Shown here in pieces: positions 3,169-53,625 of a stretch of DNA of 64,000 nucleotides. Where the stretch lies: IMG/VR virus record IMGVR_UViG_3300020598_000119; one strand, written 5' to 3'. This DNA is from a virus. Its lineage: Duplodnaviria; Caudoviricetes. The translations under genes and the position numbers were made by a program. The number at the start of each line of letters is the position of its first letter. The first letter of the stretch is position 1. Under the pieces are notes generated by a model. It saw only the letters and a program-made list of their open reading frames with translations, did no database searches and had not been told where the DNA came from.

Positions 3169-5802
3169 TTAATCGTCCTCATCCTGCAGAAGGGAGGTCA
3201 GGAAGTCTTCTACAGGCGCACTGTTCGGGTCCCAAGAACCGTCACCACCGTCGTCGTCCTTACCGTCATCTCCGTCATCGTTAAATACATGTACGGCCGA
3301 AGCGGATGCAGTTGCTGAAGTCGCGATATCACTCTTCGTGAAATCAAAATCATCCTCAATCTCATCACCATCATCCGACGAAAGAGCTTCTTCGATATAA
3401 TTATCAACGCTCTCCCTAGTCTCTACTTTTTCATCAAAATTCAGAGCTGCCAAGGTTTTTAGGACATTTTGGTTTGATGACATTCTATCCGTCATCTTCT
3501 GAATATCTCCCCCGACCTCAGTGCCATGAGGAACATCCTTTTTCATACCGCTATTAATCGGCCTCGGGCGCGAAGCAAATGGCGGTCGACCCTGTTCTTC
3601 CGGCTCAGGGCTAAACTCTTCGGGCATAGATTCCGGTCGTGAACGACGAGCGGTTCCAGGTCGACTTTCGCTAGGAACTTTTGCGCCATCGTCGAACGGA
3701 ATATTCTCGATGTCCTGTGGGACACTGTGCTCACCAGGCACCCCTGCCCCAGTAGCCGCACCAATTTCACGCGCATAAGCCTGTGACGTCTTGCGGTTCT
3801 CGGCGTTGAGCTTCGCGTAAGCGATACAGGTGATATCTGCACGGTGAGCTGGGGCACGCTTGGAGGCTTCAATTTCCTTCAGCGAATGCGCGATAATACC
3901 AATGTCAGTATCCGTGGCGATATTCTGCATCGCATTGGCAGCCATGATTTTGACCTGCTTCGCAAATTCTGGGTCAGCCATTTTTGCGATAATTTCAGGT
4001 AATTTCTGTTGTTTTTCGATCTCTTCGCGATCAGGTTTTGCCACTGTGATGAAATAGTTGGCTCGCAGCTTCAAATTGTTCTTGTTAACTGCGCCTTCTG
4101 GATTCGCGTAGAACGATTTTGCTCGAACGACCCAGCCCTTATGAATGATGTGCATTTCACCTTCGTCCTGATCTTTCAGGTCGAGCGGATTAATGCGATC
4201 AACTTCTTCGGCACCAGCCTTCATGTCATCCCGATAAGAGCGGCCGCCAACTTCTCCAGGCTTGCCATCAAAGTTTTTCATGCGGGCTAGCCACATTTTG
4301 CCTGCAGCTTTGACACCAAGTTCTGCAGTGTCTTCGTCTTCAGTTCTCATGATGATCTTGGTGTTGGTGTTACCGCGCACCGAACCAAAAACCTTCTCGT
4401 TCAAGCTCTTCATAGCGTTGATGTCCTGACCCGCGAAGATCAGAGAGAAACCAAGCGAACGAGCCTGCGCAGCCATGAGATCCATACCGTCGACCATGTA
4501 ATAACCCACCTCGTCGAGAACGACGATGAACGGGCTAGGCGAGTTGGTTGGGCGATTGACAACGACGGAGTCCCAAGTGCCTTCAATTTCAGAACCGAGG
4601 GTACCACCCATCATGCCCTTCAACGTGGCCACGACGATCTTGCCGAGGTTGGCAATTTCGTCTCGTGATTTTTCGAGGGCAGGAAGCATAATAACAAGGA
4701 TACGGCGATTAAGAACAACGTCAGCCATATCGATCTCACCATACGGCGTATGGAAGATGTGTCCATAAACGTCAGCAAGAGAACCAAGTATCTTGGTAAA
4801 CTGCATTTCAAGGTAGCCGTGCTGGTCAAGTGTAGTCTGAGACTGTTTGTATCCCTTGTCTTCCTGGAAGCCCGGAAGTGAGGTCATATATGAACGAATG
4901 CTTTTGCGGATTGAAGGCGGCATCTCTTGGTACTTGTCTTTATCTGCCAAGTCGATAATGCGCTTCAACTGAAGATGGTCGCGAATTTCTGAAACGTTGA
5001 GGTCGATATAATTGTTGTCACGCAGCCAGGTCAGAGCGCGCATGACACCCGTAAACATAGCAGCAGCACGACCTTTCCACATCGCCCCGTCGCCGCCAGC
5101 GTCGTCCATAAGGCCGACAACCATCTGAGTGAGCGTATCCGAAGAACCAGTGGCGAACGGGTTCAGCGTGTTGGACATGAGCTTTCCGCCACCGCCGCCG
5201 ATGTCCTGGTTGCCTGTCATGTAGTTGAGAACGAGGAGGTCGTCTTCGCGGCCGAAACGACGGCACAAAGCATAGACCTTCGAAAAGAGAGCAACGTCAC
5301 CCTTACCGTCACAAAAGAGAAAACCGGAACCCCAAGCGACAGCATTAGCTGCGAAGCCGAGCAGGGCTTCGGTCTTACCAGCACCAGTCGTACCCAAAAC
5401 AAGAAAATGCTGACGGCAATCAGAGTTGGTAAGCCAAACTTCTTTTGCCGTTTTCAGCTCATTGCCTAAGAAAAAAATGCCCTGTGCTATCGAAGGCTTA
5501 GAAGTGGCAGGGTGTCGCTCATTAGCGTCCATCATTTTTGATTGAATAGGCAATTTGAGTGGAGAGGTCTCCTCTTGCTTCAAACCAAACCACGTAAATA
5601 AACACGCAAAGATCAGACATAAATCTGCGACGGCTGGTATGATAAATGCGAGCGCAGCAAAAAATAGCAGAAAAGTTGCCAGATTTTGCGGCACCTTCAG
5701 CCAATCGACAATTTTCTTGCTTAGTGGCCGTGCGTCTCTAGCGAGATCTATAGCCCTAATTTCTTGCCTGCCCTCAGGGCCTCGCATTTGTTTCTGGGAC
5801 AT
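3169..5802 (-). CDS. type IVB secretion/conjugation coupling protein (IcmO/DotL/TrbC family)
   Basis: N-terminal TM helices, Walker A 'GTTGAGKT', 'DGKGD', 'LDEVGYY', 'AQARSLGFS..FAGQD', acidic tail. Confidence 0.9.
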   Translation of the reverse strand: MSQKQMRGPEGRQEIRAIDLARDARPLSKKIVDWLKVPQNLATFLLFFAALAFIIPAVADLCLIFACLFTWFGLKQEETSPLKLPIQSKMMDANERHPATSKPSIAQGIFFLGNELKTAKEVWLTNSDCRQHFLVLGTTGAGKTEALLGFAANAVAWGSGFLFCDGKGDVALFSKVYALCRRFGREDDLLVLNYMTGNQDIGGGGGKLMSNTLNPFATGSSDTLTQMVVGLMDDAGGDGAMWKGRAAAMFTGVMRALTWLRDNNYIDLNVSEIRDHLQLKRIIDLADKDKYQEMPPSIRKSIRSYMTSLPGFQEDKGYKQSQTTLDQHGYLEMQFTKILGSLADVYGHIFHTPYGEIDMADVVLNRRILVIMLPALEKSRDEIANLGKIVVATLKGMMGGTLGSEIEGTWDSVVVNRPTNSPSPFIVVLDEVGYYMVDGMDLMAAQARSLGFSLIFAGQDINAMKSLNEKVFGSVRGNTNTKIIMRTEDEDTAELGVKAAGKMWLARMKNFDGKPGEVGGRSYRDDMKAGAEEVDRINPLDLKDQDEGEMHIIHKGWVVRAKSFYANPEGAVNKNNLKLRANYFITVAKPDREEIEKQQKLPEIIAKMADPEFAKQVKIMAANAMQNIATDTDIGIIAHSLKEIEASKRAPAHRADITCIAYAKLNAENRKTSQAYAREIGAATGAGVPGEHSVPQDIENIPFDDGAKVPSESRPGTARRSRPESMPEEFSPEPEEQGRPPFASRPRPINSGMKKDVPHGTEVGGDIQKMTDRMSSNQNVLKTLAALNFDEKVETRESVDNYIEEALSSDDGDEIEDDFDFTKSDIATSATASASAVHVFNDDGDDGKDDDGGDGSWDPNSAPVEDFLTSLLQDEDD

Positions 5803-6102
5803 TGAATCCCCTTCATAAAACAGCCTATGGAATGAATTTTAAAGCCACACATCCACCGGCAACAGCCTTTCCAACGATTCTGACTAATCAATTGTAATCC
5901 TTCAAGCATTTATTTAATTATCCGAAATCTTCGGTCCACACAGAAGATTAATGCGAATTTCAAAGGAAAAATGCTTGATTTACGGAATTAAAGGGGGTAT
6001 TAAAGCCTTCATGCGCATTGAGCGCCTCAACTATCATCAACATCTAACCGTACTGGAGTAAGCATGCAGGGCCTTAATTCTCGATCTCCCCACCCCAACG
6101 GA

Positions 6103-6264
6103 ATGGCTCAGCGTCGTCGACGCAAGAAATACAAACTGAAACCAGGGCATCCTACTGATCAAGAACTCATTGCAAGCTATCTGGCAAACGAAGGTAAAGT
6201 CACTCAATGCCCTCCTGGTCGCGCTATCGGCTCCATGCAGTCCCAATGTTTCGGACTCGAATAA
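6103..6264 (+). CDS. small basic hypothetical protein
   Basis: 'ELIASYLANEGKVTQCPPG' resembles small phage/plasmid proteins; start uncertain (6064 or 6103). Confidence 0.35.
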   Translation: MAQRRRRKKYKLKPGHPTDQELIASYLANEGKVTQCPPGRAIGSMQSQCFGLE

Positions 6265-6356: not shown

Positions 6357-6932
6357 CTAAGTCGAAAAATCGGCGACAGTTTCAATATCGCCCCGATCAA
6401 TCGCACCAGGAATAATCCTGACTTGAGAGCCAATTGAATATACAAGCGTAGGCGTTTTTATCCCCATCCCAGTATCCCTGATAATTAATGAAGCCAGTGT
6501 CGTCGCTACAAGGTAATCCTGTCTGTCGGCTAAAGGCGTTTCCTCTTTCGTTGACCCCATCTTTATAGGCTGAAACATATCAGGGATAAGAGCAGCGCGC
6601 GGGTCAGCCATAATCTGCTGCACGGCATTACTACCTTCCGGCTGCCCTCCAGAAAATGGTATCCATGCGAAAGTCACCCTTCCGCTTGCAATCACACCTC
6701 TGCTCGCTTCGTATAGTTCTAGCGATTTTGGACACCACGGCGTTGTGAGAACATAAACCACATTCGCTACATGCCCATCCTGCACATGTGGCATGGCTTT
6801 GAATGCGTTTAACAATTCGGGCGATGCGGACCATCCGACGCGAGCAAATGCTTTCGTCACGAACATCGATGCGCCTAGTCCTCCAATGAATCCTCGCCTT
6901 GTAATACGAGAAAATTGTTTATCGATGTTCAT
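6357..6932 (-). CDS. Tat-exported thioredoxin-fold protein (DsbG/TrbB-like, single Cys)
   Basis: 'TRRGFIG' Tat signal, 'YVLTTPWCPKS', 'IKTPTLVY' cis-Pro loop. Confidence 0.6.
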   Translation of the reverse strand: MNIDKQFSRITRRGFIGGLGASMFVTKAFARVGWSASPELLNAFKAMPHVQDGHVANVVYVLTTPWCPKSLELYEASRGVIASGRVTFAWIPFSGGQPEGSNAVQQIMADPRAALIPDMFQPIKMGSTKEETPLADRQDYLVATTLASLIIRDTGMGIKTPTLVYSIGSQVRIIPGAIDRGDIETVADFST

Positions 6933-38355: not shown

Positions 38356-38365
38356 AAACAGGCAT

Positions 38366-38510
38366 CGCTAAGTAAAGGGACTCGAACCCTTAACGCAGAA
38401 TCGGTCTGGTTCGTATCTGCCATTGGTTTCTGCCATGAACCAGGGGTATGAATACCCATTCGTGATTGGCTTGACCTCAACGTCGTCTACCACTTCCGAC
38501 ATACTCAGCG
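38366..38510 (-). other. tRNA-Leu-like element with about 60-nt internal insertion, no CCA
   Basis: GCTGAGTA/TACTTAGC acceptor, Leu-type D-loop GGTAGAC, CGTTGAGGTC, T-arm AAGGGTTCGAGTCCCTT. Confidence 0.55.
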
Positions 38511-38542
38511 AATTTCGATAAGGACCCGAGGCCCTTGAAACT

Positions 38543-38645
38543 TGGTGGCAGAACAGGCACTTGATCTCAGCGGATGATCAATCCGTGATCTTTGACCAGT
38601 ACGCCGACTCCGACGAATGTACCTAGGATACGTCAGGGTCCTGCC
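38543..38645 (-). ncRNA. tRNA-like RNA (acceptor stem plus ACCA, non-canonical body)
   Basis: GGCAGGAC/GTTCTGCC-ACCA. Confidence 0.4.
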
Positions 38646-38652
38646 ATTTAAG

Positions 38653-38729
38653 TGGTCGGAGTGGCAGGCTTCGAACCTGCGACCTATGGTTCCCAAAACC
38701 ATCGCGCTACCAGGCTGCGCTACACTCCG
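38653..38729 (-). tRNA. tRNA-Pro(TGG)
   Basis: ATGGT-TT TGG GA-ACCAT, CCA. Confidence 0.92.
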
Positions 38730-38794
38730 AATTCTTCATGCACGGGCCGAGCAGCGCCACTGAAGGCAGTAGGTCTCGGCCCGTTAGTTTAACT

Positions 38795-38886
38795 TGGTGG
38801 GGGACGGCTAGAGTTGAACTGCTTGCCGCATAGGGACCCGGTTTACAGCCCGGTGACAGGACCGCCCATCCTTATTGGCGTCCCCC
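38795..38886 (-). tRNA. atypical tRNA with GTA (Tyr) anticodon, 8-bp acceptor stem
   Basis: GGGGGACG/CGTCCCCC-ACCA, D-stem AGGAT/GTCCT, loop CT GTA AA. Confidence 0.6.
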
Positions 38887-38891
38887 ATAAA

Positions 38892-39105
38892 TGGTGGAGA
38901 TGACAGGATTTGAACCTGCGCAGACCGTGATGACCTTCGCATTACCAAAGGCTCCCAATTGGTTTGAAACGCGCTTCCCTACTCGGCCCTCTCTGGCTGT
39001 TTCGGTGCATCCGCAAAGACCCCAATCGAGATTTGTCACGTCCCTGTTTTACCAGAGCCGGATTCCGTTTCCCGGTGCCCATGCCGACCTCAGGCGGACA
39101 TCCCC
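38892..39105 (-). ncRNA. 214-nt tmRNA-like RNA (tRNA-like domain with G3-U70)
   Basis: GGGGATG/CATCTCC-ACCA, T-arm GCAGGTTCAAATCCTGT. Confidence 0.55.
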
Positions 39106-39107
39106 AT

Positions 39108-39185
39108 TGGCTTGAACGGCAAGGATTTGAACCTGCGACCTCCTGGACCCATTCCAGGCGCGCTCCCAGACTGCGCTACATTCAA
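39108..39185 (-). tRNA. degenerate tRNA-Pro-like (TGG, A at position 33)
   Basis: Pro-type D-arm TAGCGCAGTCTGG, CCTGG-AA TGG GT-CCAGG, CCA. Confidence 0.55.
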
Positions 39186-39990: not shown

Positions 39991-40040
39991 AAAAAAAAAG
40001 AAGAACCCTCGTTAGCGGTCGGCCAGCGAGGGTTCTTCTT
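39991..40040 (-). terminator. attenuator terminator of the Leu/Pro/His/Tyr tRNA operon
   Basis: AAGAAGAACCCTCG..CGAGGGTTCTTC followed by T9. Confidence 0.85.
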
Positions 40041-40067
40041 GGTCTGATCGAAGGATTTACTTAAGCG

Positions 40068-40229
40068 TTAAAATCCTTCTTTCGCCAATACAGCCCGCTG
40101 ACCGCAACCCAGATACGGGAGCGGTAACAAATGGGGGGGATGAGGCAGAGCGGAAACGGCACGCGTCAGGGCGACGCGAGCAGAAACTGCCGCAACCTTT
40201 CCCTGTACTGTCTGTGCCGAAGCGTTCAT
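40068..40229 (-). CDS. leader peptide MNASAQTVQGKVAAVSARVALTRAVSALPHPPHLLPLPYLGCGQRAVLAKEGF
   Basis: GAGGA RBS; 13 consecutive Leu/Pro/His/Tyr codons at 40148-40110. Confidence 0.8.
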   Translation of the reverse strand: MNASAQTVQGKVAAVSARVALTRAVSALPHPPHLLPLPYLGCGQRAVLAKEGF

Positions 40230-40303: not shown

Positions 40304-40465
40304 TATGATTTTTGCAATTTCTGATTTTTTATTCCGAGGACGTCCGATGCCGATGAATCATCTCTGAGGCGGATGGCCATTGGATGGCAAAAAGGGGCTG
40401 CAAGAAAATTGTTGGTTTCCAGCAACCGCAGGCACTATCATGAAACAAAATATTGGAGTTTTTCG

Positions 40466-41404
40466 ATGGCAATAGATTTACCTACCGCAGCCATGGCGCT
40501 TATCACCGCACTGGAGAGCGTCACTGGTGTTCAGATTGCTATTCTCGAACGTCGTGATGACCCGGCTGAATTCTGGGCCAGAACCGCAGCAATTCTATGT
40601 GATAAAACAAAACAGAATTGGTGCAGTGAGGACGTTCGCTTCATGACGTCCAATACGGAACTGATGGGGATGTCTCATATAATCGAGTACAACTTCGATG
40701 GGAAGGGGACACGTAGGGTATGCGCACTCCTGCCGCCCATTGCGAACATCGATCCCAATTTCATCGCCAATGCATATGGTTCACCGTATCCGACTATCTA
40801 CGATTTGCCATCGAGTGCGGAAACGGCAAGTTGGCTGATGCTGTATCATGCGGCGCACTGCCTCGACACAGCTCTGTCCGACCAGGAAGAAAACCGAGCT
40901 GTCGCCTTTGCGACTCTAGGGCTTTCGTTGATGGGAGGAGACTACAAGTTTCTGCCAGGAAGGGTACGCTCATCTGCTCGCCAGATTGCGGCCATGACAG
41001 GTAAGGCATCTGGATATTGGGCCGCAGGCACTGGCGAACGCATTCTGATGGATCTCTGGAAGACTGAAACTGGGGACAGGCTCCGGCGCGAGTACGGATG
41101 CTATCCAATAGTGAAACAGAGCAGCTCGATTGATATCGAACGGATTGCACGCGATTCACGCATTCCAGAAGGACAAAACTGCGCTGCAGAAGCAGGTGGG
41201 AACGGTGGTGGCATGCGTACGAACCCGCAGGGCACAATCACGGACGCCAACCTGTGGCTTTGGCTATATGGGCCTCAAAGTGGAGGAACGTCATCACCAA
41301 GGCTTGGCGTGCCCCCGAAGGACTACTATCCGTTTAAGACCTTCAAGGACTTCAGCACCGCCGCCTCTTACGTATTAGAGACAGCCAACAAGCTAGCGCA
41401 GTGA
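40466..41404 (+). CDS. hypothetical protein
   Basis: start taken at MAIDLP; 'YHAAHC' is an HExxH-like motif lacking Glu. Confidence 0.55.
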   Translation: MAIDLPTAAMALITALESVTGVQIAILERRDDPAEFWARTAAILCDKTKQNWCSEDVRFMTSNTELMGMSHIIEYNFDGKGTRRVCALLPPIANIDPNFIANAYGSPYPTIYDLPSSAETASWLMLYHAAHCLDTALSDQEENRAVAFATLGLSLMGGDYKFLPGRVRSSARQIAAMTGKASGYWAAGTGERILMDLWKTETGDRLRREYGCYPIVKQSSSIDIERIARDSRIPEGQNCAAEAGGNGGGMRTNPQGTITDANLWLWLYGPQSGGTSSPRLGVPPKDYYPFKTFKDFSTAASYVLETANKLAQ

Positions 41405-52617: not shown

Positions 52618-53625
52618 ATGTCTACCATCAATAGCGCCCCAATCGCACTAACGGGCGACCGTCCGACTGGACCTCTTCATCTCGGTCACTACGCAGGCTC
52701 TCTGCAGCAGCGACTTCGTCTTCAGGATGAAGGATATCGTTGCTTCGTTATGATTGCCGACATGCAGGCGTACACCGACAATGCAGACAACACCGCGAAG
52801 ATCAGAGACGCCATTCCGCAGGTGGTCTCGGACTATCTCGCAATCGGTCTCGATCCTAGTAGGACAACAATCTTCCTGCAGTCGGCCGTGCCTGAACTCG
52901 CAGAGCTGACGATGCTCTATATGAATTTCATCACGGTGTCCCGTCTGGAGCGAAATCCGACGATCCGCGATGAACTCAAGTTGCGAGAATTCGAGCGTGA
53001 TATCCCTTCAGGCTTCCTGTGCTACCCAGTATCGCAAGCGGCCGACATAACGGCGTTCAAGGCCACTTGTGTCCCAGTTGGAGGTGACCAGCTCCCAATG
53101 ATTGAATTGGCTCAGGAAGTCGCCAGAAAGATCAACCGCGCAGGCGGCAGGGAAATTCTGCCAACGCCAAAGAGCCTCCTGTCCAAGGTCACACGCCTTC
53201 CAGGAATCGACGGCAAAGCGAAGGCGAGCAAGTCTCTTGGCAACGCCATATTCCTTTCGGACAGCCAGAAAGAGGTAAAGGACAAGGTCATGGCGATGTA
53301 CACCGACCCCAACCACATCCGCGTCAGTGACCCCGGACAGGTCGAAGGAAATGTCGTGTTTTCGTACCTGGACGCCTTCGAAAACGACCAGGAGAAGGTT
53401 GAAGACCTGAAGAGACGGTATCGTGCGGGCGGCTTGGGCGATGTCACAATCAAGAAGGAGCTGATCTCATCCCTTGAACGGGTCATGATGCCTATTCGTG
53501 ACCAGCGGGCGGCAAATGATGCCGATTACAAAGACATCATCCGTCAGGGATCGCAGGAAGCAAGAGAAGTTGCGGCGCAAACGCTTGCTGATGTCAAAGA
53601 CGCACTCGGTGTGTTCTCAATCTAA
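52618..53625 (+). CDS. trpS: tryptophan--tRNA ligase
   Basis: 'TGDRPTGPLHLGHY', 'YPVSQAADI', 'VPVGGDQ', 'KASKS' (KMSKS variant). Confidence 0.95.
   Translation: MSTINSAPIALTGDRPTGPLHLGHYAGSLQQRLRLQDEGYRCFVMIADMQAYTDNADNTAKIRDAIPQVVSDYLAIGLDPSRTTIFLQSAVPELAELTMLYMNFITVSRLERNPTIRDELKLREFERDIPSGFLCYPVSQAADITAFKATCVPVGGDQLPMIELAQEVARKINRAGGREILPTPKSLLSKVTRLPGIDGKAKASKSLGNAIFLSDSQKEVKDKVMAMYTDPNHIRVSDPGQVEGNVVFSYLDAFENDQEKVEDLKRRYRAGGLGDVTIKKELISSLERVMMPIRDQRAANDADYKDIIRQGSQEAREVAAQTLADVKDALGVFSI

Follow-up and report, generated by a model that had tools for sequence, protein, structure and literature searches.

Phage T4 encodes, within its tRNA cluster, two stable RNAs that are not tRNAs, the species 1 and species 2 RNAs, which are co-transcribed and processed with the tRNAs and have no known function and no known link to rsr or rtcB. 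Bacterial operons for Ro60, Y RNA and RtcB are well known, less so what their RNAs do and which RNAs they act on. The YrlA RNAs encoded beside rsr and rtcB are tRNA mimics (PMC4201824), and in Mycobacterium smegmatis RNase P cleaves YrlA, to which CCA is added in vivo (Chen et al. 2014, PMC4201824). The operon is induced by damaged tRNAs, tRNA halves carrying a cyclic phosphate activate RtcR, and YrlA has been suggested to compete with the nuclease (PMC7790460). The published link of long tRNA arrays to rtcB consists in genomic proximity and in joint induction under translational stress (PMC8421152), and both a sponge role for array tRNAs and the competitor role for YrlA are at the stage of proposals (PMC8421152, PMC7790460).

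The DNA analysed here (the window, 64,000 nucleotides) is a conjugative element, with genes for a type IV coupling protein, PcfJ, a Strawberry-notch-type helicase, AbiEii, a cytosine methylase and an integrase; a class I Trp/Tyr-type aminoacyl-tRNA synthetase gene (52618-53625, plus strand; PF00579, 206 bits) is found near its tRNA arrays. Within a minus-strand Tyr/Leu/Pro/His array lies a genuine RNA gene. Its folded product, here named X RNA, has ends like those of a tRNA and an acceptor stem of the alanine type but lacks an anticodon. The gene occupies 38892-39105 (minus strand, 214 nt), where covariance model R1 of the family matches with 231.2 bits, so that the unit and the boundaries proposed by an earlier, sequence-only reading stand. 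The 5' end GGGGAUG and the 3' end CAUCUCC-ACCA, with G3-U70, A73 and the encoded CCA, are read directly in the sequence, as is the canonical T arm, GCAGG/UUCAAAU/CCUGU, which immediately precedes the 3' acceptor strand, all as that reading had described them. The placement inside a tRNA operon also holds, X RNA starting 2 nt past the CCA of the preceding tRNA: the array runs Tyr, Leu, Pro, Leu, an odd Pro-like tRNA, X RNA and then three tRNA-like pieces, the latter interspersed with another Pro, followed by His and three Leu. Neither rsr nor rtcB adjoins X RNA in this window, and two plus-strand open reading frames across it (74 and 145 aa), with no recorded protein, are judged spurious.

The tRNA-like parts of X RNA resemble tRNA-Ala in G1-C72, G2-C71, G3-U70, G4-C69, A73, the T arm and the encoded CCA, and ordinary tRNAs align to the corresponding parts of R1 at 20-35 bits; however, X RNA lacks an anticodon loop, carries about 140 nt of extra structure and is missed by ARAGORN and by RF00005. 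With YrlA (RF02553) it shares the condition of a noncoding tRNA mimic with T arm and D arm, encoded between rsr and rtcB in part of the family. In X RNA, however, the two ends pair as a free acceptor stem of 7 bp that bears the encoded CCA and the alanine set, and the internal insert of about 110 nt holds a different invariant core, from which the Ro-binding motif GNCGAAN0-1G, located in YrlA in the stem of both ends, is absent. RF02553 does not match X RNA itself in the window or at the three loci (L184, L199 and L209) where it matches neighbouring RNAs. The likeness to tmRNA (RF00023; permuted form RF04321) lies in the GGGG.../...CUCC-ACCA acceptor, G3-U70, A73 and the T arm, in a large domain joined by a helix at the place of the anticodon stem and in weak full-length alignments to RF00023, whereas X RNA is about 215 nt long instead of roughly 350, has a D stem and two extra hairpins, shows no pseudoknot among the helices identified, and is linked genomically with rsr and rtcB and with tRNA arrays. 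The T4 species 1 and 2 RNAs are comparable as non-decoding structured RNAs encoded in a cluster with tRNAs on a mobile genome.

The fold of X RNA is best followed from its 5' end, with position p equal to 39106 minus the window coordinate and all parts on the minus strand; the order is acceptor stem, D arm, hairpins H1 and H2, a P3 arm that carries helix PL, the core and hairpin H3, and finally the T arm. In the acceptor stem, GGGGAUG (p1-7, 39099..39105) pairs with CAUCUCC (p204-210), which together with A73 and the CCA (p211-214) spans 38892..38902; 100% of the alignment cells are paired, and 6 of the 7 pairs show compensatory changes across nine members. The D-arm analogue (39077..39095) has a 3-bp stem, GCC/GGC (p11-13 with p27-29), and a 13-nt loop that includes UGAGGUCGGC; its stem covaries, being ACC/GGU in L186 and GCG/CGC in L180 and L185. 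The sequence-only reading had the interior replace the D arm along with the anticodon arm, but the D stem is retained and is followed by H1 (p31-48, 39058..39075), a hairpin that resembles an anticodon arm without an anticodon. H1 consists of CCGGG, the loop AAACGGAA and UCCGG; its stem covaries (CCGG becomes UCGC/GCGA in L174), and its A-rich loop, of about 8-18 nt, varies in length and sequence. H2 (p49-64, 39042..39057; CUCUG, loop GUAAAA, CAGGG) has a stem that is fully compensated in relatives and a loop that reads GUAAAA, GUAACA or GUAAUG, or is a GNRA tetraloop (GAGA, GAAA) in L180 and L185.

Helix P3 joins CGUGA (p66-70, 39036..39040) to UCACG (p176-180, 38926..38930), with compensatory changes in all 5 pairs; as a linker of 4-6 nt, 6 nt long in the window, and then the T arm follow it, P3 stands in place of the anticodon stem. 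Inside P3, the 10-bp helix PL pairs UCUCGAUUGG (p75-84, 39022..39031) with CCAAUUGGGA (p144-153, 38953..38962), has compensatory changes in 9 of 10 pairs and closes a nearly invariant core of 44 nt (p92-135, 38971..39014), an irregular hairpin in which about seven positions vary across the nine members. The core begins with GCGGAUGCACCGAAACAG, holds the hairpin GCC/GGC with loop AGNGAG and finishes with CGAGUAGGGAAGCGC; two of its variable positions covary, GCC/GGC being GUC/GAC in L199. A GCG/CGC helix that might close the core is invariant in eight members and broken in L209, and is left unsupported. H3 (p155-172, 38934..38951; CCUUUG, loop GUAAUG, CGAAGG) covaries in its stem, which is CCCGGG/CCCGGG in L174 and changed in others too, and keeps its GUAAUG loop. 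In the T arm (p187-203, 38903..38919), 97.8% of cells are paired, the first pair is kept as G-U in 8 of 9 members and two pairs show compensatory changes. The structured interior reported by the sequence-only reading is thus borne out by covarying helices, but the pairing given there as its example, CTCTGG with CCAGAG, is not: CUCUG pairs locally with CAGGG in the covarying H2, and CCAGAG falls in the loop of the core hairpin. The minimum-free-energy fold of the single sequence was discarded: it is no better than those of shuffled sequences (z = -0.19) and differs from the covariation-supported fold, so that single-sequence folding is uninformative for this RNA.

The core was also compared with ribosomal RNAs, and mimicry was rejected in each case. 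Its best local alignment to 16S/23S rRNA scores 19 versus 20.2 +/- 2.3 in shuffles, RF00001 gives no match at E up to 10, and the alignment to the host 5S rRNA scores 8 versus 8.4 +/- 1.5 in shuffles. The core does contain a GAGUAGG-type motif and a possible AGUA/GAA S-turn, both of which we take to be shared with 5S rRNA.

Eight further distinct members of the family were found in metagenomes, in one other genome and in relatives of the island. The island was traced through a hypothetical protein neighbour (window 40373-41404), whose 88 relatives are spread over metagenomes and replicons of Rhizobium, Agrobacterium, Sinorhizobium and Neorhizobium. L174 came to light when a related island, whose version of this protein shares 56% identity, was screened for orphan T-arm/acceptor/CCA units; it is a 215-nt unit at 5043..4829 (minus strand) with the acceptor GGGGCCG/CGGCUCC-ACCA, which shows blocks of identity with the window's X RNA between fully compensated helices. 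A 20-mer from the core led, in metagenomes, to L180, L184, L185, L186, L188 and L191 (L187 duplicates L180, and L190 duplicates L174), a pattern search over 401 genomes of the order gave L199, in a genome of another family, and the more divergent L209 lies upstream of an rtcB gene that was reached by protein search. Model R1 was built from eight sequences, and L209 is a ninth that only the model detected; R1 gives members 148-231 bits but ordinary tRNAs 35 bits at most. Other searches were negative: the degenerate acceptor/T-arm pattern on genome contigs was dominated by tRNA-Ala genes and 3' parts of normal tmRNAs, with no homologue among the loci returned, exact 24-25-mers from the tRNA-like ends had no match in viral or metagenome contigs, the core 20-mer had none in viral contigs, BLAST against phage and plasmid collections matched tRNA parts only, and blastn over 200 genomes of the family had the nearest genome, G001, as its sole match. 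With only 2 carriers among 151 sampled genomes of the order, X RNA is a rarity, at least within the set searched. At its position in the window, Rfam makes no call at gathering thresholds, and under permissive ones RF00023 is the only full-length match. The family is absent from Rfam 15 and uncatalogued, and no published description was found in the literature searched.

Pairing of the two ends would, alone, be weak proof of such an RNA, since a 7-bp partner 60-300 nt upstream is expected by chance about 0.2 times per tRNA 3' half and several false partners did appear in the scan; the proof comes from conservation and covariation. Across the 200-kb island of G001, X RNA is the sole T-arm/acceptor/CCA unit whose only partner lies 214 nt off, the other such units having a partner at tRNA distance or no perfect partner. 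The array of G001 (6 Mb) is about 95% identical to that of the window, with 43 differences in 1014 positions (about 4%) in spacers, leader and degenerate pieces versus none in the 214 positions of X RNA (C2:956086-956299 in G001). At the spacer rate, the probability of an unchanged X RNA is about 1e-4, its conservation equals that of the best tRNAs of the array and, to judge from this sequence comparison, it is under purifying selection. Across the nine aligned members, standard pairs account for 92.7% of cells versus 73.5% in column shuffles, and changes on both sides are found in 35 of 52 base pairs, counts that are somewhat inflated because the alignment was fitted to the model structure, although L209, outside the model, still fits. 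The covariation score is 0.542 versus 0.177 in shuffles, none of 500 of which reaches it, and drops to 0.075-0.119 when partners are slid by 1-3 columns. The sequence-only reading had staked its proposal in part on conserved homologues with covarying structure, and these were found.

The same alignment bears on the alanine identity set, which that reading had rightly recognized and which sits on a discrete, conserved RNA with tRNA ends. G3-U70 is kept in seven of nine members, the window included, and A73 in all eight members that have a 3' end, while acceptor pairs 4-7 vary by compensation. Given G3-U70 in these seven members, charging by AlaRS is plausible, as far as sequence can indicate, for most members, including that of the window. 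L188 (C3-G70) and L185 (G3-C70 with C1-G72) lack the pair, and alanylation is thus not essential across the whole family.

Two genomic settings are found for the family, namely directly upstream of rtcB in an RNA-repair operon and within arrays of spare tRNAs carried by mobile elements. Outside arrays, protein neighbours can be identified for four members (L184, L199, L209 and L188), each of which lies just upstream of rtcB, and at three of these loci rsr (Ro60) and YrlA-type RNAs are also present. The order is rsr (Ro60 TROVE/vWA), YrlA (67.7 bits), X, YrlA (69.5 bits), rtcB in L184; rsr, YrlA (68.6 bits), a weak YrlA, X, rtcB in L199; and rtcR, then rsr, a YrlA-like match (46 bits), X, another (55 bits), rtcB, rtcA in L209, whose two YrlA-like matches are both below the cut-off of 69 and whose locus recurs on at least 24 contigs. 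In L184 and L209, therefore, X RNA lies between two YrlA-type matches. L188 reads X, rtcB, rtcA, and the neighbours of L185 are uninformative. The other five (the window, L174, L180, L186 and L191) are in mobile tRNA arrays, often beside tRNA-Pro. X RNA is absent from L208, an rtcB operon with a close RtcB, and from L164, a closer (77%) relative of the island. The stand-alone home of the family is, thus, the rsr-YrlA-rtcB operon, which points to a biology like that of Y RNAs or of tRNA mimics.

G001 has X RNA, RtcB and Rsr on one replicon. Its island extends over at least 130 kb of the 1.19-Mb replicon C2 and carries 45 tRNA genes covering all 20 amino acids; the only RtcB gene of the genome (1000587-1001867) is inside this same tRNA island, about 44 kb from X RNA, and Rsr (190308-191189), accompanied by a partial YrlA match, is on C2 at about 766 kb from it. 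Permuted tmRNA and SmpB both occur twice in the genome, the tmRNAs scoring 147 and 130 bits, and C2 carries one copy of each (SmpB, 262631-263059; tmRNA, 300126-300402, the 130-bit match). C2 is a secondary replicon on which the kit for translation and RNA repair is backed up almost completely, and this back-up probably lies behind the 7% 'contamination' figure of the G001 genome.

The resemblance of X RNA to tmRNA calls for a careful weighing of the idea, raised by the sequence-only reading, that it is a miniature one-piece tmRNA, which would be charged with alanine, enter stalled ribosomes with SmpB and translate a frame in its core, GCA CCG AAA CAG CCA GAG AGG GCC GAG UAG, into the tag APKQPERAE. 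The alanine set in seven of nine members, the inserted domain at the anticodon-stem position, the presence of SmpB on the same G001 replicon and the fact that the Rfam tmRNA model spans the whole unit at 19-29 bits are all in keeping with it, as is the UAG-ended frame itself, which begins 13 nt past PL with a GCA codon and is open in all nine members. The topology of a one-piece tmRNA, with its domain at the anticodon-stem position, is indeed there, but membership in the tmRNA family is not supported: the Infernal comparison with RF00023 that had been called for stays below the cut-off of 47 throughout, with 19.4 bits in the window, 9 bits when X RNA is searched alone and 23.9-28.6 bits in relatives, only the 3' tRNA-like end aligns confidently, and ARAGORN makes no call at default or at relaxed 60-70% thresholds. 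The frame, the only one closed by a stop in all members, reads (GCG/GCA)(GAU/GUU) GCA CCG AAA CAG (CCA/UCA)(GAG/GUG)(AGG/AAG)(GCC/ACC)(GAG/UAG) UAG and thus has one synonymous change against six kinds that alter a residue or add a stop (D/V, P/S, E/V, R/K, A/T and E/stop), while its third positions are otherwise invariant in spite of fully rewritten flanking helices, and the changes CCA to UCA and GCC to ACC are the two sides of one compensating base pair. The candidate frame is, to judge from these substitutions, under RNA-level and not coding constraint, in line with the earlier remark that no tag frame was convincing. Moreover, the tag would end in AE or RA, which is not hydrophobic, two members lack G3-U70, X RNA has a covarying D stem and an extra arm, and the replicon that bears it already has a permuted tmRNA at 130 bits, the nearest genome using the permuted form that was expected of alphaproteobacterial ssrA. 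By these comparisons X RNA is not a tmRNA, and the notion that it rescues ribosomes by translating a tag is highly unlikely.

A tRNA gene split by an intron or insertion, a possibility which the sequence-only reading had also listed, or a decaying pseudogene made of two tRNA remnants could be thought of because the array also holds degenerate tRNA-like pieces (elements C and D), and relaxed ARAGORN settings do force a poor, class-II-like tRNA of 91-94 nt on the 3' half. In the forced model, however, the acceptor is mismatched twice and a loop measures 10 nt; the intron option of ARAGORN produces nothing better than poor, forced models, neither RF00005 nor ARAGORN calls a tRNA at default settings, and up to an E of 10 no group I intron family matches. 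Members share no anticodon, the H1 loop being variable and of about 8-18 nt versus the 7 nt of an anticodon loop; all 214 nt are conserved, the interior most of all; and L184, L188, L199 and L209 are away from any tRNA gene, so that the probability of this origin is practically negligible. Better founded, though still unlikely, is the explanation, of which the sequence-only reading had named the decoy form, that X RNA is a bait or decoy that soaks up tRNA-targeting nucleases (anticodon nucleases, toxins) or gives a signal once cleaved, the cut RNA with its 2',3'-cyclic phosphate signalling to RtcR or being resealed by RtcB. The tRNA-like shape, the exposed A-rich loop on an anticodon-arm-like hairpin and the occurrence both next to rtcB and in spare tRNA arrays would suit such a function, and precedents are provided by the sponge and competitor roles proposed for array tRNAs and YrlA (PMC8421152, PMC7790460) and by the activation of RtcR by tRNA halves with cyclic phosphate (PMC7790460). 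Yet the H1 loop changes in both sequence and length among members and so mimics no particular anticodon loop, and it is the distal core, dispensable to a simple decoy, that is most strongly constrained.

With moderate confidence, X RNA is rather seen as a functional, tRNA-shaped noncoding RNA of about 215 nt, belonging to a conserved family and acting as a tRNA mimic in the response to RNA damage or translational stress, the role being inferred from structure and setting. Having acceptor stem, D arm, T arm and encoded CCA, it would be expected to be released from the array transcript as tRNAs are, with RNase P acting at its 5' end and the 3' CCA being already encoded, and most members would probably be charged with alanine by AlaRS. 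The invariant core is a probable binding platform for a partner common to both genomic settings, for which RtcB, Ro60 or another repair or quality-control factor are candidates. Made together with the back-up tRNAs, X RNA could then serve as a tRNA mimic, i.e. as adaptor, decoy or competitor, when tRNAs or ribosomes are damaged. Among these roles, most weight is given to that of adaptor or competitor, less to that of cleavable bait and little to that of a tmRNA-like rescue RNA. A specific version of the adaptor role, which must be regarded as improbable, is that the alanine-charged, anticodon-less mimic uses EF-Tu, the ribosome or tRNA-handling enzymes to deliver a core-bound repair or quality-control factor to damaged ribosomes or tRNAs; if this is true, X RNA would stand beside tmRNA as a second aminoacylated RNA for rescue or repair, one that mobile elements spread along with spare sets of tRNAs.

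What is new with respect to the Ro60/Y RNA/RtcB operons is a third RNA species in them, strongly structured, tRNA-shaped and with the alanine set in most members, which has been captured by mobile tRNA arrays too, and thereby joins three subjects that are mostly treated separately, namely spare tRNA arrays, repair by RNA ligase and tRNA mimicry. It has been missed by annotation pipelines and by Rfam, and is easily taken for a small tmRNA.

The array of the window holds further unusual RNAs on the minus strand. Directly after X RNA, a non-canonical tRNA-like gene of 93 nt (38795-38887) has an 8-bp acceptor, GGGGGACG/CGUCCCCC-ACCA, and an anticodon-like loop CUGUAAA (GUA, Tyr); it reaches 21 bits on the Rfam tRNA-Sec model (cut-off 47), differs from G001 at 1 of 93 positions and has a clear homologue with a perfect 5-bp anticodon stem in L164 (about 6190..6101, minus strand), which is without X RNA. 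The spacer that follows it (38730-38794) contains a hairpin, GGGCCGAG...CUCGGCCC, that is conserved in L164 (about 6040-6100). On the other side of X RNA, the Pro-like tRNA at 39108-39185 has U1-A72, G73 and A33; its anticodon loop differs from that of G001 at four positions, giving UGG (Pro) in the window versus Ser-GGA (ARAGORN) in G001, with the rest nearly unchanged, which looks, from the two sequences, like anticodon switching. In the neighbouring tRNA-Pro (38653-38729), 16 of the 77 positions differ, most of them within the anticodon arm. A unit of 103 nt (38545-38647), GGCAGGA...UUCUGCC-ACCA, has an acceptor and CCA without a canonical T loop, and is 90% identical to a segment of Rhizobium leguminosarum plasmid pRlX5 (NZ_CP140867.1:78787-78906), which lies in a different array (Ala/Ile/Val/Met). 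At 38365-38544, a Leu-like 5' half (CUGAGUA..GUCGGAAGUGGUAGACGAC) is followed by inserted sequence, then by a good T arm and a 3' acceptor strand that matches but has no CCA; its divergence of 12/180 is like that of spacers, and it is thus probably a decaying tRNA.

Upstream of the array (39991-40229, minus strand), a short open reading frame with the run LPHPPHLLPLPYL precedes a strong intrinsic terminator, and L164 has a related leader (..SPHLPFLYLPLPYL..) and terminator ahead of its own array (about 6700-6820); the arrangement fits a leader-peptide attenuator. At 9049-9135 of L164, within a Ser/Gln array, ARAGORN calls a class-II tRNA with anticodon UUA, of the ochre-suppressor type, which occupies the place of the window's tRNA-Ser-CGA.
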